From contig CP129470.1 in NCBI GenBank assembly GCA_030583685.1, positions 212,345 through 276,344 of the forward strand: 64,000 nt of DNA. The letters run 5' to 3'. The DNA is from Candidatus Dojkabacteria bacterium. Lineage in GTDB: Bacteria > Patescibacteriota > Dojkabacteria > GCA-002793355. Position 1 is the stretch's first letter. Every line of letters begins with the position of its first letter. This document shows, piece by piece, positions 476-54,650 of the stretch. The position numbers were made by a program, and so were the translations under genes. Below the pieces are notes generated by a model, which ran no database searches, had not been told where the DNA came from, and was given only the letters and a program-made list of their open reading frames with translations.

Positions 476-1186
476 CTATTGAATTCTCTGAGCGTACACG
501 ACAATCCTGACCGGCGACTTCAAATGCTTACAGGTGTACAAAATAATATCTGCATTGTAATCCGTAAGTTGTGTGTTTTCTTCTACTTTGTACACCTTGT
601 ACACATACGCTCGTTGCTCCCAAATCAACTGAAACGTATCGCCTTCTTTTAAATTAGGAAGGTTCGCGAATGTATTCGTTTTACGAAATGCAGAAGACCA
701 TTCTATATACCCATACCGATGGGCAGCAAGAATAATCGGAGAGTCATTTCGGAGGGGAGTTCCGAACTCAGGAACTCGCCAAATTCCATTATAGAGAGCT
801 CTCTTTGAGTCGTTTCCTTCTTGAAGGATACCATTGACGCCAATTTTGGGAATTTTCAAGGTATTCTCGCGAGGAAGAGATGCATCAAATTGAGGAAGTG
901 CCAAACGAGGTTTTTCAGTCGGTGTTGGGGTTGGGGTAAAACCAATTGGTGTAGGCGTTGTCGTTAGACTAGGGGTTGGACCAATAACGGCACCAATACC
1001 AATAAACCCTGTTAAAGTATCAACTTCATCTGATGTTGCTTCGACATTAATTCGATAATATACCCACGGGAGTGCTGGAATCAGTAATAAAATGGTGCCT
1101 GCTGTTATCAACAAAAAACCCACATACGATAAAATAAAGGAAATATCTTTTAAGGTTCGTTGTTTTCTGTCAACTGCAAACTCCAT
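476..1186 (-). CDS. sortase-family transpeptidase (N-terminal TM anchor, Pro/Thr-rich linker, catalytic domain)
   Basis: Catalytic His in IILAAHRYGY, Cys in ILYTCKH (TLxTC-like), Arg in SPVRIVVY about 10 aa later; N-terminal hydrophobic anchor; TPSLTTTPTPIGFTPTPTPTEKP linker. Confidence 0.78.
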   Translation of the reverse strand: MEFAVDRKQRTLKDISFILSYVGFLLITAGTILLLIPALPWVYYRINVEATSDEVDTLTGFIGIGAVIGPTPSLTTTPTPIGFTPTPTPTEKPRLALPQFDASLPRENTLKIPKIGVNGILQEGNDSKRALYNGIWRVPEFGTPLRNDSPIILAAHRYGYIEWSSAFRKTNTFANLPNLKEGDTFQLIWEQRAYVYKVYKVEENTQLTDYNADIILYTCKHLKSPVRIVVYAQRIQ

Positions 1187-1232
1187 AGGTGATTATAAAG
1201 CTTTAACGCGATTAGAGCAATGAAAGCGTTAA
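1187..1232 (-). promoter_or_regulatory. conserved 45-bp promoter/operator element upstream of sortase gene (-10 TATAAT at 1192-1197 on minus, 5 nt before ATG; -35-like TTGCTC/TTGCTT)
   Basis: ATTATAaaGCTTTaAcGCGATTaGAGCAATgAAaGCGTTAA is near-identical to elements at 2201-2246 and 3195-3238; TATAAT-cacct-ATG geometry implies a leaderless transcript. Confidence 0.55.
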
Positions 1233-1291
1233 TGAGGTGTGAGCTTCACAAGAAGGTAAAGCACCGAAGCGATTAAAGCTTCAAACTTGCG

Positions 1292-2200
1292 TTACCGTTT
1301 TGTCTTCAGCATTCTTGCCCCCATGAACGAAACGACCCCGACGACGTACAACATTCCACCCATCCAGAGTAAGATATCATCTGCAAAACCAGTATCCGTT
1401 GGAGTATGTGTCACCGATGGTGTTCTATCGACAGAAGTTAGCGGTGGAGATGGAGTTCTTGTGAGTGGTTCAGTTGTTGTGACGGGAACAGTCGTTGTAA
1501 CAGGAACGGTTGTCGTTACAGGAACGGTTGTTGTCACCGCGATTGCTTTCATCGCCCAGAGCGCTGCAGCATCATTAAAGTCAGCATCAACTGGGTCGCT
1601 TCCTCGAGTATCAGCGAAACAGGCAGCGGCAGTATCTATCGTATTTTTTTGGCGTTGATTATAAAGAAAGAGAGTACTCCCCGATTCAGATAAGTCAGGA
1701 TGCACTTCCTGTCGAGAGGCATCATCGAGGTCTGAAATTGAAATGACCGCATAATGCCCCGTTAGGCAATTTTCACCACTACACGGACAGCCCGTTCCAC
1801 AGGTGCTACGGTGAGGACTCACATTACTTGGCATCCAGCGAGGAAATGCGGTCGTACACGTTCCCCCGGTACAAATATAAAATTCATAGCGGTAGGTCTG
1901 CTCGGTCGCAGTTGGTGGGCGAGTATCCCATAACGTACCTCCTTCATTCGAATTGCGAGTAATTGTTGCAATCACCGCTCCGCCTTGTTTTACCAGCACT
2001 CTTACTCTGTGCTGACTTTTAAAATAAAAGCGCAGCTCATGATTCGGACGAGACTTCACATCGACATAATGTCTGTTAATGTAATTTGATGAATTACAGC
2101 TCACATTGGCCTGAGCCAGGACAGGCTTTTGGAATAACACAACATTCAGCAAGGAGAAGGCAATAATAAATGCAGAGAGAGTAATATTTCGTATAACCAT
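1292..2200 (-). CDS. secreted Cys-rich surface protein with VTTTVP repeats and C-terminal sorting domain (putative sortase substrate), paralog A
   Basis: N-terminal signal peptide (…VVLFQKPVLAQA); about 12 Cys in mature region; (VTTTVP)x3-4; C-terminus HTPTDTGFADDILLWMGGMLYVVGVVSFMGARMLKTKR = motif + hydrophobic helix + basic tail; adjacent sortase. Confidence 0.75.
   Translation of the reverse strand: MVIRNITLSAFIIAFSLLNVVLFQKPVLAQANVSCNSSNYINRHYVDVKSRPNHELRFYFKSQHRVRVLVKQGGAVIATITRNSNEGGTLWDTRPPTATEQTYRYEFYICTGGTCTTAFPRWMPSNVSPHRSTCGTGCPCSGENCLTGHYAVISISDLDDASRQEVHPDLSESGSTLFLYNQRQKNTIDTAAACFADTRGSDPVDADFNDAAALWAMKAIAVTTTVPVTTTVPVTTTVPVTTTEPLTRTPSPPLTSVDRTPSVTHTPTDTGFADDILLWMGGMLYVVGVVSFMGARMLKTKR
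1472..1537 (-). repeat. tandem 18-bp repeat (about 3.7 units) encoding VTTTVP linker
   Basis: gtgacgggaacagtcgtt / gtaacaggaacggttgtc / gttacaggaacggttgtt seen directly; generates the spurious antisense ORFs 1287..1658 and 2398..2607 in the ORF track. Confidence 0.7.
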
Positions 2201-44706: not shown

Positions 44707-45693
44707 CTAGACCACCATGCCAATCAATAAAAACAGCGCAGATACCGCTGCTAACTCAATTTTTGTCGTGAAATTTAAGGTATTTTGTTCTTTATGGACG
44801 ACATACCCAATAAATACATATGCTCCCAAACTTGCGAGAATTCCTGCAACCCAGGCAAAAGGTGAAATGAGCACGGCAAAATACATTAAAAGTACCGTAA
44901 AAAGGGAGGAAAGTGCCACAAAAATCCAAAATCTTTTTCCTTGTGGAACGAAATAATGCCAAAGTGACACCACGACCAAGCTCACAAGGATTCCGAAAAT
45001 GACCGATACAACTGACAAAATATCATATTTTTGTGCAACAATAAGCGGAACGAGCCTATCAAAGGCGGTATAACTTAGTAAAAAGATCGTGACGATACTT
45101 GAAATGTACGCTACTGACTCCCCTAGCCTACTCAGGGGTATGGTATAAAACAACGTGACATTGAGGATATTTACCGCTAATGCGAGAATATACAGTAAAG
45201 TCATAAACATAAAAATTGCTCCGGTAAAAAATCCCCAAAGGTAAACTCGATTAATTCCTCCCACAAATACCGTTGAGAGAAACAGTGAATTTGCAACAAC
45301 CAACACCGACGGAAGTAACAAGACTGACCAATACGATTCCCTTCTCACCTGGCCCTTGAGCCCCCAAATCATGCTCACATACGTCAAGGCTCCTAACCCA
45401 AGTGATACCATCAGAACCCATACAAATGAAAGATTCTCTGGTAAGAGATACGCTTTTAAGAGTGCATACAAAAACGGAATTCCCAAGGCAACAACCATTA
45501 AACGTACTCGCTTTGGAAGATCTTTGAATTGCTTTTCTCCTGGAGCAAGGAGAACTTGAAAGTTTGACCTGATTTGATCAATTTGTTGCAAAATCTTTCC
45601 CCACGGAGAATCATCACTTAAAAACACAGACCGCGTATCAACCACGACCGAAACTTCATTTTTGTGACGGGGTTGAGAGTGATGCTGTACCAT
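44707..45693 (-). CDS. polytopic membrane protein of unknown function (about 8 TM)
   Basis: Hydropathy only. Confidence 0.45.
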   Translation of the reverse strand: MVQHHSQPRHKNEVSVVVDTRSVFLSDDSPWGKILQQIDQIRSNFQVLLAPGEKQFKDLPKRVRLMVVALGIPFLYALLKAYLLPENLSFVWVLMVSLGLGALTYVSMIWGLKGQVRRESYWSVLLLPSVLVVANSLFLSTVFVGGINRVYLWGFFTGAIFMFMTLLYILALAVNILNVTLFYTIPLSRLGESVAYISSIVTIFLLSYTAFDRLVPLIVAQKYDILSVVSVIFGILVSLVVVSLWHYFVPQGKRFWIFVALSSLFTVLLMYFAVLISPFAWVAGILASLGAYVFIGYVVHKEQNTLNFTTKIELAAVSALFLLIGMVV

Positions 45694-47845: not shown

Positions 47846-48946
47846 TTATGCAATTTCAGAGATTTTTAGGGAAATCTGTTGTACTTTCCCTTTAAGCTCA
47901 AACAAAACACTTACTGCTGTTAACCCGAGAGTACCCGTGTGGGTATTCGAATACCCATACATTGGATCATTTTTGACCGGTGCACCAAGGAAACGCGCTT
48001 GTGCTCTAATCTGGTGAGTCCTCCCTGTATGCGGTATAAATAATAGATCTACTTCAGTTTCATTCACAGCGATAATATAAATGTCGCTGCGACAGGGCTT
48101 AATTCCTATTAAATTGCTCTTTTCTCGCTCATCTGCCTGGTAAACCATATACGGAGTTCCCTTTTTTCGTCCGATGTATCCATCCAAAACAATCGGCTTT
48201 TGCGACATTGTTACTGCTTTGACGAGTTCAGGAACTGATGCATATTTCTGTAATGAAGGTAAAGAGGCTTTTCGCAAATACTCAATCGCCTTTGAGAGCT
48301 TCGGATGAAGGCTTGCGGTAAATTCGCAACGGGCGACATAGTACTTTTGTAAGGTTCGTTGCTGAAACTGCGCTTTGATTGAGTTATACGTCTCCATATT
48401 CTTTGCAAACAACAATACTCCTTGTGTATCCTTATCTAAGCGATGCAACAGTCCAGCACGAGGAATATAACGATGCTCGCGTCGCATATATTTGATAAAT
48501 TGATACACCATACTGTCTGCTCCGCGGTCTCCTCTTCCAGGATGAGATAATACCCCCGGGGGTTTATTAACAGCCAAAACATCGTCACTCTCAAAGATAA
48601 TCGAGGGTTTCAAATCTCCCGCCCGAGCAACCCTTCTTTCATCTAATTCAATATCTTTTTCACTTGCGTCCCACGCGTCAGCTTCTGCATCTTGCCTGAC
48701 ACCTGTACTGTAAACGGCGATCATTTGTTGAACCTTCTCTTCGTCGAGGAGTGGTACTTGCTTGTCTGGATTAAAGGAAAACCCTTTTTTCTTGATGATT
48801 TCATTATTGTACGTTACACCGCCACTCATCAGTAACCTTTCGATATACGATCGAGATAACTTTGTTCCATACTTCTTTTCAATATAGTCCTGCAAATAGG
48901 TGTCAAGCCGAATCATGTTACCAATAATACACAAGTAAGGCGCCAA
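47846..48946 (-). CDS. RluA-family 23S rRNA pseudouridine synthase (RluD/RluC-like) with N-terminal S4 domain
   Basis: S4 at N-terminus; VLAVNKPPGVLSHP; HRLDKDTQGVLLFAKN. Confidence 0.8.
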   Translation of the reverse strand: MAPYLCIIGNMIRLDTYLQDYIEKKYGTKLSRSYIERLLMSGGVTYNNEIIKKKGFSFNPDKQVPLLDEEKVQQMIAVYSTGVRQDAEADAWDASEKDIELDERRVARAGDLKPSIIFESDDVLAVNKPPGVLSHPGRGDRGADSMVYQFIKYMRREHRYIPRAGLLHRLDKDTQGVLLFAKNMETYNSIKAQFQQRTLQKYYVARCEFTASLHPKLSKAIEYLRKASLPSLQKYASVPELVKAVTMSQKPIVLDGYIGRKKGTPYMVYQADEREKSNLIGIKPCRSDIYIIAVNETEVDLLFIPHTGRTHQIRAQARFLGAPVKNDPMYGYSNTHTGTLGLTAVSVLFELKGKVQQISLKISEIA

Positions 48947-49421
48947 AATAGGCTAAAATAGCAAGGCAACAGGTAAGACTACGGAGAATAAAGTTTCTCA
49001 TAATTCCCCTTTTTTCCAGTTTCAAACGTCGCGCCAACGAAATTGTCGGAATGAAAATATATAAGATGAGCAAGAAACCAAAAAGTCCCCAGAGAACGGG
49101 AAGAAATACTCCTTCAGAAAATTGCAACACTCTCCAGGGGAAAAGCGTTAACCAGATGGTTTCTGTCGCGGTTCTACTATACGGCAATAAGCCCCAGGGA
49201 ACCTCGGTATATCGCGCGAGATTGAGTCCCATCCAGACAAGTCGAGCTGCGAGTAACGAAATCACCCCAGAAATAAAAATTTCGTCAAAAAACGTAAATG
49301 AGGATTTTGAGTGTTTAATCCCAAGCTCTCGAAGCCGCTCCCAGATTGATAATGCCGTTTTCCAGCACCAATAACTGAGAAGCACAGCCCCTAGCGCCCA
49401 TAAAAAGGCTTCTATCATCAT
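48918..49421 (-). CDS. small membrane protein (4 TM) of unknown function
   Basis: Hydropathy only. Confidence 0.4.
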   Translation of the reverse strand: MMIEAFLWALGAVLLSYWCWKTALSIWERLRELGIKHSKSSFTFFDEIFISGVISLLAARLVWMGLNLARYTEVPWGLLPYSRTATETIWLTLFPWRVLQFSEGVFLPVLWGLFGFLLILYIFIPTISLARRLKLEKRGIMRNFILRSLTCCLAILAYFGALLVYYW

Positions 49422-50176
49422 TATTTTCTCTCTTCTGTGGGTTTATCATGCTCTTTCTTCTCAGCAGTCGCTTCGGATTTCGCAGTGTCGCTCTCAACTT
49501 TCTGCTTTTTTGTGGGCAATAACTTTTTTTTAATTGATCCGAGTGCTTGTCTGGCATTTGTGCCCAGCTTTTTTAATGCGGAAAACCGTTCACGCGTTTC
49601 TTTTTCTTGAGAAGGTACCTGTGCTTCTCCTTTTGTTTTTTGAACAACTGTTTCTTTTTTCTCACCAATTTGTCTTCCACACTGCGAACAGTGGAGATTG
49701 TAGATGCTTTGACTTGCTTCACACCCTGGACAGACGGTATTCATTTGCGTACCACAAGCAGCACAGAAATTGTGCGTTATTGGAACCAATGTGCCACAGG
49801 TTGGGCAATCATTCACGGAACTTAATTCATTCATAAGATACTTGCTTTCCAATTTGGTCCACTGATTCTCGTCTAAAGTCACTGCAGGTCGCATAAACAA
49901 ATAGCCGACAAGTCCTAAAAGATTAAATGGCAAGACAAAAAGAAACCATAACACGGCAATTTGCCATTGTTTATACCGAGAGCTCGCATCAATCGCAACC
50001 CACAAGGCAAACACTAACCAAATAATGAACACCCATAAGCCTAATAACCGAAAAACCAACATGACATCAATACCGATAATCTGCTGGAATAGATCTTGCA
50101 AGTATGTCCCGAAGTTACCGGGATCCGTTGTTTGGGCGAGTAATCGTTGCATTGCATTGCTATTCAAATGAGTCAC
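49421..50176 (-). CDS. membrane protein with double zinc-ribbon (CPTCG…CAACG, CPGC…CSQCG) and Lys-rich tail; annotated GTG start abuts tRNA-Leu, the ATG at 50152 is more plausible
   Basis: Four CxxC pairs; 2-3 TM helices. Confidence 0.5.
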   Translation of the reverse strand: MTHLNSNAMQRLLAQTTDPGNFGTYLQDLFQQIIGIDVMLVFRLLGLWVFIIWLVFALWVAIDASSRYKQWQIAVLWFLFVLPFNLLGLVGYLFMRPAVTLDENQWTKLESKYLMNELSSVNDCPTCGTLVPITHNFCAACGTQMNTVCPGCEASQSIYNLHCSQCGRQIGEKKETVVQKTKGEAQVPSQEKETRERFSALKKLGTNARQALGSIKKKLLPTKKQKVESDTAKSEATAEKKEHDKPTEERK

Positions 50177-50177
50177 T

Positions 50178-50263
50178 TGGGCAGGGAGGGAGTCGAACCC
50201 TCACGCGGGGGTAACCCGCAAGAGATTTTGAGTCTCCCGTGTCTGCCATTCCACCACCTGCCC
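50178..50263 (-). tRNA. tRNA-Leu (anticodon CAA), type II with long variable arm
   Basis: Reverse complement folds as 7-bp acceptor stem GGGCAGG/CCTGCCC, anticodon stem GGAGA/TCTCT with loop CTCAAAA (anticodon CAA), variable stem GCGGG/CCCGC, T-arm GAGGG-TTCGACT-CCCTC, discriminator A; CCA not encoded. Confidence 0.9.
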
Positions 50264-50337
50264 AAAGTAAGGAATTATAGCAAGAAGCCAGCACAAAGTA
50301 CAACAGACGAGCATAGCTGCATTCTTTTCTTGCCTTC

Positions 50338-51315
50338 TCACACATTGATACAATTTGTGTCACTTCCTTTCAGAAAATTTTTCACATTATCAACAAAGAT
50401 CTTACCTAACGTTTCAGAAGATTCACGTGAAATTCCTGCGATGTGCGGCGTAACGATAACATTAGGAAGTCGAATCATCTCTTGAATCTGAAGCGAGGCT
50501 TCTTTTGAGTAGAAGGGCTCCTCCAAAAGTACGTCAAGTACCGCACCAGCAATCTTTCCCTCTAGTATGACTTCTGCTAATGCATACTCATCAACCACAG
50601 TATTTCTCGCTGTGTTTACCAAAATGGCATCATCTCTCATTTGCTGCAATTCTTCTTTACCAATTAAGTGCCGAGTTTCCATAGTCAATGGAACTGCTAA
50701 AACAAGTATATGCGACCGTGCAAGCAATTTTTCTAGTGTAATAAATCCGTCGACACCCATTTTTTGCTGCTTCTCTTTCGTTGGATGCTTTGTGTGCGCC
50801 AAAACCTCCAGTCCATATCCACGTGCAATACTTGCAATACGCTGGGCAATATTACCACTTCCCACAATGCCAATCGTCTTTCCATAGAGTTCCCTACCGA
50901 CAAAGTGTCGATAGGACCACCCCCCTGCGCGAACATGTGCCTGAGCAGCGGGAATATGTCTGAAAAGCGACGTTATCAACGCAAACACAAATTCTGCAAC
51001 GGCATTTGCATTAAAACCTGCACAATTATAGACTTTCACTCCTTTTTTCCGAGCATATGCCACATCAATATTATCGAATCCAACCGCCTGACAGAAAATA
51101 GCTTGTGCGTGCGGTAACGCGTCAATGAGCTTCCTATCAACTTTCAAAGGAATATCCACTGTTAATAATTCGGCATTTTTTCCACGTTCAACTGCTTCCA
51201 GCCACGTACTCGGGTTATCTTTTGGAATAAATATCGATGAAATCTCGGGTAACCTCTTTATTGCAGAAAAAAACTTTTTATCGACGTACGGTAAATCGAG
51301 TGATGCAAATTTCAT
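50338..51315 (-). CDS. D-isomer-specific 2-hydroxyacid dehydrogenase (catalytic paralog)
   Basis: GIVGSGNIAQRIA (NAD-binding), VNTARN (Arg), DVLLEEP (Glu), VTPHIAG (His). Confidence 0.8.
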   Translation of the reverse strand: MKFASLDLPYVDKKFFSAIKRLPEISSIFIPKDNPSTWLEAVERGKNAELLTVDIPLKVDRKLIDALPHAQAIFCQAVGFDNIDVAYARKKGVKVYNCAGFNANAVAEFVFALITSLFRHIPAAQAHVRAGGWSYRHFVGRELYGKTIGIVGSGNIAQRIASIARGYGLEVLAHTKHPTKEKQQKMGVDGFITLEKLLARSHILVLAVPLTMETRHLIGKEELQQMRDDAILVNTARNTVVDEYALAEVILEGKIAGAVLDVLLEEPFYSKEASLQIQEMIRLPNVIVTPHIAGISRESSETLGKIFVDNVKNFLKGSDTNCINV

Positions 51316-51316
51316 A

Positions 51317-52576
51317 TTAAAATAGTAACAAATCAGATTTTCCTTGCGCATACGAAACTAACCGTTGTACGGTATATTCATTCATTTTTCTTACTGAATC
51401 GCTGGTATACCAGCCAATATCTGGCGTAATGAGTACATTCGGAAGGTGCATTAGTTTTCGGGCCTCGGTTAACGAGCCTTCTTGAAGTTCGGGATAATAA
51501 TCAAAAGCAAGACCTTTGATTAACCCTTGATACATTTTTTCCCTAACCCCTTGATAGTCGATATATTGGTGTTTATATACACTTATCAAATAGACAGGTC
51601 TCGTTAGTTTTGAAAGAAAACGATGATCTAATTTTCCAACTAAATCTTTATATTCATCACCAGTCCAAGAGAAATAGTAAATATCACCCGTTTCAAATAT
51701 TTCCTCTTCTGTTGCAAAACGACTGACGCCAAAGCGTGTTGGATCAACACTCAAGTCTTCTGTGTATATTCCAATTTCAACACCAAGTCCACGCAATAGA
51801 ACCACCAAATCTTCGGTTCCCAACTCTGTCCCGAAAATGATTACCTTTTTCCCTCGCAATTGCTCACCTTTAAAGTAGCGAAATTCCGTAACACCCGTTG
51901 ATGCTTGTGCAGCTGCTTCCACGGTTGCTCGAAGCAAGGCAAAGGTTTGTGACAAAACGTATTCAGTTACTGCAGTTGATTTATAGTCATAGGGTATGTT
52001 CGAGAGATGAAGGTTTCGTTCTTTCATCGCCACGATATCGACATACCGATACATATGTGTCGTTAAATGCATGTATTCAAGTTGTGGAAGCTGCTTCAAT
52101 AGCGTTTCAGTGACCTTCCCTGCATAATTATTGATGATAACCTGACTATGCTTCGCCCGTTTAACAAATTCGTCATCGGGAACATATAATTGTGTATGAG
52201 AATAGTCAGAAATCTCGTAATACTCTTCCAATTTTCTTCGCGCATCGGGAAGCAAATCAAAGTAATTCACAATCGCAAGTGATTTCTTTCCTTTGCCTGC
52301 ATGACTCCGTGCATGGTGTGAGCTTTCCAGAATCTTGTTAAGCCCCTGTTTGTATTGAGTAATTTTCCGAAGAAAGTAGGCAGTAACCACTGCTTCCTCC
52401 GCAAGATAATAGACTCTCACACGGCCTTTTTTGCTTGTTTTGACAATCCCCTCCGCAATAGCCTTTCGCAAATGATGTCTCGCCGCAGTTCGTTTAAAAC
52501 CAAAAGACTCCATCAACTGATATACCGTTACTGTTTTTTGTTTTCGAAGTAACGTGACAAGCTCCACCATTTCCAT
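51317..52576 (-). CDS. winged-HTH regulator fused to a degenerate (pseudo-enzyme) D-2-hydroxyacid-dehydrogenase-like domain
   Basis: N-terminal TVYQLMESFGFKRTAARHHLRKAIAEGIV (HTH); C-terminal 2-HADH fold with PNVLITPDIG (His replaced by Asp), NAD motif degraded to IIFGTELGTE, Arg of NTARG lost. Confidence 0.6.
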   Translation of the reverse strand: MEMVELVTLLRKQKTVTVYQLMESFGFKRTAARHHLRKAIAEGIVKTSKKGRVRVYYLAEEAVVTAYFLRKITQYKQGLNKILESSHHARSHAGKGKKSLAIVNYFDLLPDARRKLEEYYEISDYSHTQLYVPDDEFVKRAKHSQVIINNYAGKVTETLLKQLPQLEYMHLTTHMYRYVDIVAMKERNLHLSNIPYDYKSTAVTEYVLSQTFALLRATVEAAAQASTGVTEFRYFKGEQLRGKKVIIFGTELGTEDLVVLLRGLGVEIGIYTEDLSVDPTRFGVSRFATEEEIFETGDIYYFSWTGDEYKDLVGKLDHRFLSKLTRPVYLISVYKHQYIDYQGVREKMYQGLIKGLAFDYYPELQEGSLTEARKLMHLPNVLITPDIGWYTSDSVRKMNEYTVQRLVSYAQGKSDLLLF

Positions 52577-52686
52577 AGCTATATTTTACAGTCACAAACT
52601 GGCTAACACAATAGCCAATTCATAATCACATATCGCTCTACAACGATTACCTAATCGACAGACCTTCTTAATAAATAAAAACGCCG

Positions 52687-54006
52687 CTATTCCTGTTCTT
52701 TCGACAGATTTCTGAAGCTCGCCATTTCTTTTACCCAGGCGAGTTCGATTGAACCCGTTGGACCGTTTCGATGTTTCGCCACTTTTATCTCGGCAATACC
52801 TTTCTTTTCTGTCTCTGGATCGTAATAATCCTCACGATGAATAAACATAACGACATCTGCGTCTTGCTCGATTGATCCAGAATCACGTAAATCTGACAAT
52901 TGCGGTAATTTGTCTGGTCGATCTTCAGTTTTACGAGACAGCTGAGAAAGCGCGATAACAGGCACACGCAACTCACGCGCCATATTCTTCAATTCTTGAG
53001 AAATCTGAGATACTTCCTGAACTCTTCCCTCTCGGGTGTTTCCTTGAATTAACTGCAAATAATCAATAAAGATGGCGTCAAGCCCCTGTTCCATATACAA
53101 TCGACGCGCTTTTGTACGCACTTCAACTATATTTGCTCCAGGAGTATCGTCAATTGAGATATGTAGGTCAGAAAGAATACCAGTACCTTCCGAAAGTCTG
53201 GCGAACTCTTCCTCTGTGAGTTTTCCGGTACGCATATCCCACAATCCAACACCACTTTGCGATGAAAGTAACCGAGATGCTAATTGACTTTGCGACATTT
53301 CTAACGAGAAAATTGCCACCTTATTTCCTGCGAGAGCGATATTTCTTGTCATATCCAACATGAACGAAGACTTACCCATTGAGGGACGTGCGGCAAGAAT
53401 AATCAAATCGGATTTTTGCAATCCACCAAGCATGCCATCAACATCGCGGAAGCCTGTGGGTACCCCCAGTAATGATCCATCTGCAACATTTACTTGAGCA
53501 GCTTCTTCATACACTTGTTCCAAGACATCTGCAATACGTGTAAACCCTTTATCGACACCCTGTACAGATACGGTAAACAATTCGTGCTGTGACTGGTTAA
53601 CGACATCGTTTGTAGGCTTTTCCTCATCAAATGCCAAGTCGGTAATAGTTGCTGCAGCAGAAATAAGGCTTCGTCTCAAGGCTTTTTCTTTAATCGTTTT
53701 TGCGTATTGTTCGGCGTGCGCCGAGGTTGGCACAGACTCAATCAACTCTACAAGATACGACCTTCCCCCTACTTCCTGAATGACATTTTGTTTTTGTAAG
53801 AAATCGGTTAATGTCAATTGATCAATCGATACCGAAGCCATAAAAAGATCAGACATTGCCTTGTAGATGATTCCATGCCGCTTCTCATAAAAATGCTCTG
53901 GCTTTAAAAAAGACAATACTTTTACCAGTGCATCACGATCAAGCAAAATTGCCCCAAGAATACTCTTCTCAGCATCTACATTTTGTGGAGGAAGTCGCTG
54001 CGCCAT
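52687..54006 (-). CDS. dnaB: replicative DNA helicase DnaB
   Basis: Walker A GKSSFMLDM…; RecA-like C-domain; N-terminal DnaB domain. Confidence 0.9.
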   Translation of the reverse strand: MAQRLPPQNVDAEKSILGAILLDRDALVKVLSFLKPEHFYEKRHGIIYKAMSDLFMASVSIDQLTLTDFLQKQNVIQEVGGRSYLVELIESVPTSAHAEQYAKTIKEKALRRSLISAAATITDLAFDEEKPTNDVVNQSQHELFTVSVQGVDKGFTRIADVLEQVYEEAAQVNVADGSLLGVPTGFRDVDGMLGGLQKSDLIILAARPSMGKSSFMLDMTRNIALAGNKVAIFSLEMSQSQLASRLLSSQSGVGLWDMRTGKLTEEEFARLSEGTGILSDLHISIDDTPGANIVEVRTKARRLYMEQGLDAIFIDYLQLIQGNTREGRVQEVSQISQELKNMARELRVPVIALSQLSRKTEDRPDKLPQLSDLRDSGSIEQDADVVMFIHREDYYDPETEKKGIAEIKVAKHRNGPTGSIELAWVKEMASFRNLSKEQE

Positions 54007-54056: not shown

Positions 54057-54650
54057 CTACACAAGTGCCGTCACTGTCATGGTTACAATGCCATCTCGAG
54101 CACTTGCTTCAATCTTCTTTACCGTCACTTTTTCGCTTTCATGGACCTCACTTAAACCAGTTTTCTTTTTGTATTCTTCTGTATACGTAGAAAGGACGAC
54201 ATGGAAAGGTTCAAAATCAAGTTGTCTGCCTGACAATGCCGTATCATGACCAACAAGAACATCGATTGGCGCATATTGCTTCACAAAGGAATCGCTTGGT
54301 TCTGATTGAAAGAAGCCGACAGTGCCTTCAGATGTGTCCAATACATAATGAACTACCGAGTCAAGGCTACTCCCCTTCAGATGAACATCCTTGATACGAT
54401 ACTCACCTGCTGAGAAAATGACAATCGCATCTTGGTTGTTCTTCAGATCCTGCGAAAACAAATCCCACTCCTCTACGTTCTCTGGAGTATTTACCGGTTC
54501 GACAACGGTAACAAGAACAATATCAATGTCCTCGGGAATTTTCCCAGCCAACTCTGCCGGTGACGCAAGAGGAGAAAGAAACCAGAGTACTTTTGTCTCC
54601 TTTACTTCAAGGCGAATGGCATTAATTTTCTTTAATTTCGTAAACTGCAT
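54057..54650 (-). CDS. hypothetical protein (197 aa) upstream of dnaB; not recognisable as ribosomal protein L9
   Basis: ORF only. Confidence 0.4.
   Translation of the reverse strand: MQFTKLKKINAIRLEVKETKVLWFLSPLASPAELAGKIPEDIDIVLVTVVEPVNTPENVEEWDLFSQDLKNNQDAIVIFSAGEYRIKDVHLKGSSLDSVVHYVLDTSEGTVGFFQSEPSDSFVKQYAPIDVLVGHDTALSGRQLDFEPFHVVLSTYTEEYKKKTGLSEVHESEKVTVKKIEASARDGIVTMTVTALV

Follow-up and report, generated by a model that had tools for sequence, protein, structure and literature searches.

In a purely computational analysis, we examined a window of 64,000 nucleotides (nt), positions 212,345 to 276,344 of contig CP129470.1 from a Candidatus Dojkabacteria bacterium, which contains two genes, here called A and B, arranged head-to-tail on the minus strand with A upstream (Table 1; coordinates are those of the window). 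An earlier note on this DNA had read them as tandem genes with the fold of the 2-hydroxyacid dehydrogenases (2HADHs), the downstream one active and the upstream one catalytically dead and fused to a winged helix-turn-helix (wHTH), and both open reading frames (ORFs) are indeed present. The product of A is 100% identical to a protein from a metagenome-assembled genome (MAG) of Candidatus Dojkabacteria annotated merely as 'NAD(P)-dependent oxidoreductase'; here we present it as a candidate transcriptional regulator of its own operon. The N-terminus MKF(V/A)(S/A)(L/V)D of B is kept across ten homologues, and for this reason B most likely starts at the MKF in position 51315 and not at 51351; the apparent 35-nt overlap between the two genes therefore vanishes, leaving 1 nt between the stop codon of A and the start of B.

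Table 1. Coordinates of genes A and B and of the features assigned to them in the 64,000-nt window.
Feature	Position	Strand	Remarks
Gene A, wHTH/pseudo-2HADH fusion	51317-52576	minus	ORF, 419 amino acids (aa); stop codon 51317-51319 (TAA)
Gene B, canonical 2HADH	50338-51315	minus	325 aa from MKF start; ORF listed as 50338-51351
Predicted winged HTH of A (aa 1-60)	52397-52576	minus	ArsR/MarR/TrmB type; profiles and AlphaFold2 (AF2)
Predicted recognition helix of A (aa 29-41, RTAARHHLRKAIA)		minus	R33 and H34 codons at 52475-52480
Long linker helix (aa 61-87) and disordered connector (aa 88-97) of A, predicted	52286-52396	minus	AF2
Dead 2HADH-fold domain of A (aa 98-419)	51320-52285	minus	Pfam, Foldseek, residue alignments
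Degenerate P-loop of A (G249-T-E251-L-G-T254)	51815-51832	minus	In place of GxGxxG
K335-H336 of A	51569-51574	minus	Substrate-Arg site (ISVYKH vs NTARxx)
D386 of A	51419-51421	minus	Catalytic-His site (PNVLITPDIG vs PNVVLSPHIA)
E363 of A			Catalytic Glu site; column variable across family
Thr272 of A			Beta-2 Asp site
Candidate operator, perfect 18-bp palindrome TGGCTA-TTGTGT-TAGCCA	52600-52617	.	Ends 23 nt upstream of A ATG
Putative promoter	52583-52611	minus	-35-like TTGTGT (52606-52611) inside palindrome spacer, 17-nt spacer, -10 TAAAAT (52583-52588)

Both fold and homology place A in the superfamily of the D-isomer-specific 2HADHs. The Pfam models 2-Hacid_dh (PF00389) and 2-Hacid_dh_C (PF02826) matched aa ca. 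100 to 414 with 47 and 37.4 bits (gathering thresholds of 24.6 and 25.1, respectively), and in Foldseek comparisons against the PDB the body of the AF2 model retrieved 2HADH enzymes and CtBP with a probability of 1.00 and E values of 4e-20 to 1e-17, at TM-scores, normalised to the A query, of at most 0.63. Structure prediction is thus in agreement with the fold proposed in the earlier note. No PDB chain retrieved by Foldseek spanned a 2HADH body plus a wHTH.

Alignments of A with D-HicDH (1dxy), with B and nine B orthologues, and with further canonical enzymes indicate that it lacks the Arg-Glu-His triad of a working 2HADH. The catalytic His is replaced by Asp386, as had been recognised from the motif PNVLITPDIG, and the Arg of NTARG is gone, as had also been claimed, although it is not simply lost, because an invariant Lys335 occupies its place. 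All 23 homologues of 36–60% identity have D386, K335 and G249, and H336 is at least 90% conserved, whereas a distant clade of fusion proteins, described below, mostly shows Glu at the His site. Because D386 and K335 hold in 23 of 23 close homologues, the loss of the catalytic residues is not due to chance. The alignments also point to the lack of the GxGxx[GA] loop and of the charged residue of beta-2 expected in a working enzyme. The motif GxGxxG, which the note had described as eroded, reads G249-T-E-L-G-T, and G249 is its sole Gly invariant in the family: the second is Glu or Asp in most of the 23 homologues, and the third is not conserved. BLASTP alternatively places a two-residue insertion within this loop, and the tight beta1-alphaA turn appears to be disrupted under the ungapped and the BLASTP alignments alike. 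Altogether, classical NAD(H) binding by A looks impaired.

Loss of catalysis was accompanied by strong conservation. A highly conserved set of residues (K335, H336, D386, W389, T391, T173 and Y178) surrounds the former active site, and the most conserved 9-mers of A correspond to former active-site elements, namely YMHLTTHMY (substrate loop), LSQTFALLR (alpha-A helix), FKGEQLRGK (pre-Rossmann loop), PVYLISVYK (strand of the Arg site) and LPNVLITPD (loop of the His site). Since the most conserved stretches fall on former active-site elements, the dead domain of A is not a passive scaffold. Across 36 locus pairs, B and the 2HADH part of A had mean pairwise identities of 49.7% and 49.1%, respectively, against 26.7% in the wHTH with its linker; the identities of A and B were correlated (r = 0.90). 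From these values, the dead domain appears to be under purifying selection of enzyme grade. We also considered that A could be a pseudogene in decay; this was rejected because no homologue shows an interrupted ORF and conservation of the dead domain equals that of the active enzyme.

The N-terminus of A is predicted to be a winged HTH of the ArsR/SmtB-MarR-TrmB class, in line with the DNA-binding domain that the earlier note had proposed. The HTH_5 (ArsR type) model matched aa 3–46 of the full protein with 21.6 bits, slightly under the cut-off of 22, and the isolated first 90 aa with 25.4 bits, over this cut-off. Pfam models for MarR, HTH_20, HTH_24, IclR and TrmB each matched 10–11 of 24 family members, and a profile of the N-terminal domain retrieved the structures of AdcR, SmtB and ArsR from the PDB at E values of 1e-7 to 1e-8. 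In the AF2 model, helices at aa 3–13, 18–25 and 29–41 and strands at aa 45–50 and 53–58 (pLDDT of 86–90) give aa 3–58 the topology of a three-helix bundle with a beta-hairpin wing. The model of the whole protein (mean pLDDT of 82) continues with the helix at aa 61–87, the connector, with pLDDT below 50 at residues 87–93, and a two-lobed alpha/beta body. A does not qualify as an ArsR/SmtB metalloregulator, scoring 33.3 bits with the NCBIfam model HTH_metalloreg (cut-off of 55), and the AF2 model shows no alpha-5 dimerisation helix, with one long helix after the wing being followed by the 2HADH body. Two homologues, P0017 (locus L001, 6001–7389) and P0018 (locus L022, 1501–2874), carry a Gly/Gln/Leu-rich insertion of ca. 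45 aa between the linker helix and the 2HADH body.

Just upstream of A lies a perfect palindrome (Table 1) that we consider a candidate operator. An unbiased search for inverted repeats in the 220 nt located 5' of A recovered 9-nt arms (one mismatch) separated by a 6-nt spacer at equal offset in the window and in two other loci, L001 and L007. The pattern TGKCTA-N6-TAGMCA has a single match in the 64-kb window even with one mismatch allowed, with 0.35 expected by chance, and the broader TGKCWA-N6-TWGMCA has five exact matches in ca. 154 kb of window plus loci, all of them just upstream of A; operator statistics are based on about 13 independent loci. Altogether, the palindrome appears in nine independent loci, with exact copies in the window, L001, L007, L008, L010, L019, L021 and L023, and in L006 if the symmetric position is allowed to vary. 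It ends 23–25 nt before the start of A in eight of these nine and 35 nt before it in L001, after resetting the start in L010 to the conserved VNEITLL. Locus L004 contains a one-mismatch palindrome and L022 a degenerate version. The upstream region of L019 has diverged throughout from that of L008, save for the palindrome and the -10 box. The possibility that the palindrome is a generic promoter element was rejected, given that the 64 kb contain a single copy and that the loci have no other, and a search of the window with relaxed mismatches for further regulon members gave background-level matches only. A one-mismatch copy of the operator was also seen inside the coding region of A in L001 (6068–6085), ending 84 nt past the start.

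The sequence of the half-site varies together with that of the recognition helix. The window, L001 and L022 show R-H-H at residues 33–35 of the helix and the half-site GGCTA, and L006, L007, L008, L010, L019, L021 and L023 show Leu or Ile followed by Tyr or His, with the half-site TGTCTA. In L004 and L005, Leu or Ile is followed by Tyr, and the half-site is TGTCAA, with approximate sites only. This co-variation does not simply follow phylogeny, because the overall identity of the window protein is higher with the TGTCTA group (58%) than with its counterpart in L001 (40%). Contacts between Arg and guanine are a classical form of DNA readout. The co-variation constitutes, at the sequence level, the best available support that A itself reads the palindrome.

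The putative promoter was assigned by visual inspection and by comparing the loci. In most of the loci that carry the palindrome, its spacer opens with TTG, followed 17 nt on by TATAAT, TATACT or TAAAAT, and the start codon comes 5–6 nt later; the layout TTGnnn-17 nt-TATAAT/TATACT-5–6 nt-start occurs in L006, L007, L008, L010, L019 and L021, and six nt separate the -10 TAAAAT from the ATG of A in the window. A -10 box 5–6 nt before the start codon implies, if the promoter layout is correct, a leaderless A mRNA. A generic scan of positions 50100–52800 for sigma-70 promoters and terminators gave nothing useful on the minus strand and did not call this promoter, since its TTGTGT fits only three of the six positions of a -35 hexamer. 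With a candidate operator at its own promoter that is conserved along with the gene, A has the sequence hallmarks of an autoregulated one-component transcription factor.

In all 13 close loci (among them the window, L001, L003–L008, L010 and L021–L023) A is immediately followed by B, as it is, with a 4-nt overlap, in the distant-clade locus L013; the flanks are otherwise unrelated, and synteny with the window extends beyond the pair in L007 only. Ten of the 13 close loci have 1–4 nt between the stop of A and the start of B, and the gap widens to 20 nt in L001 and L022 and to 207 nt in L005. With its start 1–4 nt past the A stop and no visible Shine-Dalgarno, the sequence suggests that B is translated by termination-reinitiation coupling. 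The idea of the earlier note that A is autoregulatory gains from this stable pairing, as well as from the palindrome on the A promoter, unique in the window, present in nine loci and co-varying with the recognition helix. The 207-nt spacer of L005 (5832–6038) contains short GTAATGA/GTGATGA-like repeats and a GC-rich hairpin-like segment (GCGCCAGAGGCGC), and regulator genes of the TrmB family adjoin the cassette in three otherwise non-syntenic loci (L004, 8249–9061, minus strand; L005, 3663–4436, minus strand, and 1092–1892, plus strand; L006, 8166–8954, minus strand). A distant fusion, P0059 (L014, 530–1750), encoded in high-GC DNA, has no 2HADH partner and is flanked by genes for a GntR/UTRA regulator and an alpha-amylase. 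A palindrome of a different sequence, AGTCCAGTA-a-TACTGGACG, begins 48 nt 5' of its start codon; the fusion protein can therefore work without B.

We propose, with a probability of about 0.6, that A acts as a homodimeric repressor of its own operon, A-B, with a pseudo-dehydrogenase domain that would provide dimerisation and a remodelled ligand cleft. The two genes would form a self-contained autoregulated operon, with A being a one-component transcription factor whose winged HTH binds TGGCTA-N6-TAGCCA as a homodimer, an arrangement that fits the perfect two-fold symmetry of the site. Once bound over the -35 region, the A dimer would occlude the RNA polymerase (sigma region 4) and repress A and B together. 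The C-terminal domain of A would be an ancient duplicate of a B-type dehydrogenase that lost the chemistry of hydride transfer; it would most likely supply the dimer interface, as in all 2HADHs, plus a remodelled cleft for a small molecule. Most plausibly, the signal would be a 2-oxo or 2-hydroxy carboxylate tied to the reaction of B, as suggested by the conserved positive charge of Lys335 and by the link to B, and its binding would alter domain closure, releasing or tightening DNA binding. We infer from the comparisons above the binding of the palindrome by A, the repression, the homodimeric action and the type of ligand.

Several observations weigh against this autorepressor model. There is no recognisable operator site in L003, and the sole candidate in L005 is a variant whose spacer has 8 nt. 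In some loci the right half-site looks like a -35 hexamer, with TTGACA in L010 and L004, and the palindrome could be bound by a factor other than A. Lys335 is not kept in the distant clade. The dead domain is constrained at the level of a working enzyme, above that of most sensor domains, and the gap of 1–4 nt, together with the lack of an obvious Shine-Dalgarno for B, suggests near-stoichiometric co-translation, which is more typical of the subunits of a complex than of a regulator with its target. As for the AF2 model, the inter-domain geometry is uncertain (pTM of 0.58), and the conserved loop at residues 218–234 is poorly modelled (pLDDT below 50). Finally, there is an acidic residue at E273 in 22 of 23 homologues, one position past the canonical Asp site for the NAD ribose, and D359 is also kept; residual nucleotide binding is therefore possible.

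This last point bears on an alternative that we consider unlikely, in which A would be a redox sensor following the logic of Rex and CtBP. Its Rossmann domain would bind NAD(P)H/NAD(P)+ via a non-canonical loop, the dinucleotide ratio would set DNA binding, and the expression of B, as a consumer of NAD(P)H, would be tuned to the redox state. The Rossmann core is confidently folded in the AF2 model, G249 is conserved together with D359 and the acidic E273, and CtBP, a transcriptional regulator with 2HADH fold that works in this way, is among the structural matches. Against it, in the ungapped alignment most members have Glu or Asp in place of the second Gly of the P-loop and the third is lost, the two-residue insertion of BLASTP would be equally disruptive, and the distant clade is devoid of any P-loop. 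Furthermore, E251 of A aligns ungapped with the position of the G172E mutation of CtBP1/BARS, G172 being presumably the second Gly of the P-loop, according to a numbering that agrees with the verified CtBP1 sequence and with the residues L182 and V185 that PDB entry 7kwm names in its title. The G172E mutation impairs NAD(H) binding (title of PDB entry 3ga0; two papers, among them PMC11071220). The earlier note had presented A as a pseudoenzyme sensing a ligand or NAD(H); the dead active site stands, and the NAD(H) half of this proposal is weakened by the Glu or Asp at the second Gly.

About as doubtful, we consider, is a heteromer in which the dead domain of A pairs with B via the 2HADH dimer interface, with A being a regulatory pseudo-subunit that modulates the activity of B or, alternatively, with B being the sensor, its substrate or cofactor state being conveyed to DNA by A as an adaptor. 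The strict adjacency of the two genes, with gaps of 1–4 nt in ten of 13 close loci and a 4-nt overlap in L013, their divergence in step and the equally strong constraint on both would be expected from interacting subunits, and 2HADHs are obligate dimers (PMC6303947). The loop G-x-x-x-[FY]-[RK]-x-F-x-G-x-[EQ]-L, common to A and B, is invariant in A, and its poor modelling in the monomer would be expected of an interface element. Also in favour, P0039, a dead paralog without HTH, is translationally coupled to another 2HADH gene in L015. However, an operator of perfect symmetry calls for a pair of identical DNA-binding domains, that is, A2 or at least A2B2; the clade of P0059, without a B partner, speaks against an obligate heteromer; and the two genes are 207 nt apart in L005. 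A is no nearer to its own B than to others (21.9% versus 21.8% identity), which counts only against gene conversion and not against interaction. A specific form of this arrangement, which we consider improbable, has A as the DNA-anchoring pseudo-subunit of an A2B2 (or A-B) complex, with B being the real sensor and its domain closure, induced by substrate or NAD(P)H, being passed via the shared dimer interface to the wHTHs of A. If true, enzyme flux would directly gate transcription of the enzyme's own operon, in a self-contained prokaryotic counterpart of CtBP-type metabolic corepression built from an enzyme/pseudoenzyme pair. It is very improbable that A is a re-invented enzyme, with an active site of Lys335, His336 and Asp386 for another substrate or chemistry and a wHTH for localisation or a trigger-enzyme role. 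In favour, K335, H336 (at least 90%), D386, W389, T391, T173 and Y178 are highly conserved, and the domain is as constrained as a functional enzyme. Against it, a dinucleotide must be bound for hydride transfer to occur, and the P-loop of A is degenerate; the distant fusion clade retains neither the Lys-His pair nor the Asp, having Glu and no basic residue at these positions; and every 2HADH known to work depends on the His-Glu pair (PMC6303947).

Returning to A as a probable autorepressor, by analogy its nearest functional counterpart appears to be Rex, and its nearest regulatory relative by fold CtBP. Rex is a redox-sensing repressor of Gram-positive bacteria and Thermus. Like A, it is a one-component protein with an N-terminal winged helix and a C-terminal Rossmann sensor that provides the dimer, and the operator that it recognises, a palindrome, lies at promoters of genes for fermentation dehydrogenases (PMC2883068), just as A has a candidate palindrome at its own promoter. 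Unlike A, with its two-lobed 2HADH body and degenerate P-loop, Rex has a Rossmann domain that is not of the 2HADH fold, with a functional GxGxxG, and binds NADH; also unlike Rex, the target of A is apparently its own operon with the paralog only. There was no Rex domain model among the Pfam and NCBIfam matches of A up to E = 1. CtBP1, CtBP2 and BARS resemble A in the use of the 2HADH fold for transcription control, and match it at E values of ca. 1e-4 in sequence and ca. 1e-18 in structure. They differ in that they keep GxGxxG, Arg, Glu and His, with weak dehydrogenase activity and NAD(H)-dependent oligomerisation (PMC6303947, PMC11071220), and in that they have no DNA-binding domain and are recruited via PxDLS motifs, whereas A has an intrinsic wHTH and a dead active site. 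The earlier view of A as a bacterial analogue of CtBP is appropriate for the use of the fold in transcription control, and is loose otherwise.

By sequence, A is not an orthologue of CtBP, and its nearest relatives are the B-type enzymes of the candidate phyla radiation (CPR). These are homologous to A over the whole 2HADH body, and B shares with A the loop G-x-x-x-[FY]-[RK]-x-F-x-G-x-EL-x-GK and a Thr at the beta-2 Asp site. A differs from them in lacking the triad and the P-loop, in its substrate loop (STHMYRYVD versus AVGFDNIDV) and in the extra 97 aa of wHTH plus helix. Other regulators with sensors derived from enzymes include MocR/GabR (aminotransferase), ROK (kinase), NrtR (Nudix), SorC/CggR and TrmB, as well as the fungal NmrA, with the fold of short-chain dehydrogenases/reductases (SDR). 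As in A, an enzyme fold, usually inactivated, is fused to a HTH as a ligand sensor, often beside the pathway that is controlled; in TrmB, unlike A, the C-terminal sugar-binding domain is unrelated to 2HADHs. Literature searches, full text included, found neither a HTH-2HADH fusion nor a CPR regulator of this type, and the classification paper of the 2HADHs makes no mention of a HTH fusion (PMC6303947). A would represent an enzyme-derived regulator with 2HADH fold, of which we found no described member, built on a design principle that is already known.

B itself keeps the canonical features, with G152-S-G-N-I-A (aa 152–157), R237, E266 and H291, and scores 182 bits (E value of 6.5e-54) with the Pfam model 2-Hacid_dh_C. 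The earlier note was right about its intact triad and its NAD motif, with the qualification that the latter has the form GxGxxA. Among solved structures, archaeal glyoxylate/hydroxypyruvate reductases come closest to B (6bii, 183 bits), and B reached no equivalog cut-off of NCBIfam. B has no Asp at the end of beta-2, showing HTKHP instead, which hints at the use of NADP(H).

To define the family, we used an exhaustive profile search of 1.84 billion representative proteins, grouped in clusters of 50% identity, which retrieved 36 proteins at E values of at most 1e-30. Among the best 150 matches there were ca. 27 clusters of full-length fusions, with matches starting at profile positions 2–15: a close clade at E values below 1e-149, P0028 at 1e-81, and a distant clade at 1e-65 to 1e-23. 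In the latter, the His column shows Glu (TPEIG) or Gly, Ala or Phe, and Arg and P-loop are absent. Close relatives occur in five of 185,579 species-level genomes, all five from the CPR (Dojkabacteria, Shapirobacteria and MAGs labelled Saccharibacteria), and other sources name Roizmanbacteria and Parcubacteria as further hosts; every family member with a named organism is a CPR bacterium. Scans of genomes and of metagenomes for loci gave five each, with some redundancy. An automatic label of JGI, 'phosphoglycerate dehydrogenase-like enzyme/predicted transcriptional regulator', is alone in noting the fusion.

The best-scoring matches without HTH, among the matches listed, include partner-type proteins, such as P0041, which is the B partner in L013. 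A scores higher against its own B (84.7 bits) than against the best PDB enzyme (53.7 bits), and for this reason a B-like gene that was duplicated long ago most likely gave rise to it. A recent origin by tandem duplication, as well as gene conversion, was rejected because A and B are only ca. 22% identical and A is equidistant from its own B (21.9%) and the B of other genomes (21.8%). Positions 2289–4258 of L015 contain two non-canonical 2HADH paralogs without HTH in tandem, with a 4-nt overlap. The upstream protein (330 aa) keeps GAGAVA, lacks the Arg and shows VTHNSAF at the His loop; the downstream one, P0039, keeps GAGKIG, also lacks the Arg and has Asp in place of His (TPDMAWYT), exactly as in family A. 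This pair may be a pre-fusion intermediate or an enzyme/pseudoenzyme pair without a DNA-binding domain.

The neighbours of the A-B pair are functionally unrelated housekeeping genes: DnaB and, farther away, MnmA and Pol IV upstream, and tRNA-Leu(CAA), a zinc-ribbon protein, a RluD-like pseudouridine synthase and RuvA/RuvB downstream. The tRNA-Leu(CAA) gene (50177–50264, minus strand) lies 73 nt 3' of the stop codon of B, with a TATAAT-containing stretch directly ahead of it, and no terminator-like hairpin was called between the two. It was also the sole match in an Rfam scan, with no riboswitch or leader RNA 5' of A or B. Between the DnaB stop and the operator there is another inverted repeat, CGATTA-gg-TAATCG (ca. 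52646–52659, ca. 81 nt 5' of the start of A), that was not seen in other loci. Three other minus-strand ORFs (54057–54650, 44707–45693 and 48918–49421, of 197, 328 and 167 aa, respectively) have no Pfam match at E values of at most 1e-5.

The A-B pair would add the 2HADH fold to the enzyme folds recruited as sensor domains in bacteria, and represents a clean natural case of pseudoenzyme evolution, with duplication, loss of chemistry, gain of a DNA-binding domain and continued constraint of enzyme grade. The cassette also yields a predicted specificity code, with Arg33 associated to G and Leu or Ile to T at position 3 of the half-site and, if its ligand is a fermentation intermediate, the pair could become a small orthogonal biosensor. 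The current labels of the A family, 'NAD(P)-dependent oxidoreductase' or 'phosphoglycerate dehydrogenase-like', inflate the apparent metabolic capacity of the CPR. These bacteria (Patescibacteria) have tiny genomes with few recognisable regulators and almost no characterised transcription factors, and the A-B cassette offers a compact and tractable system, comprising one protein, one candidate operator of 18 bp and one putative target enzyme.

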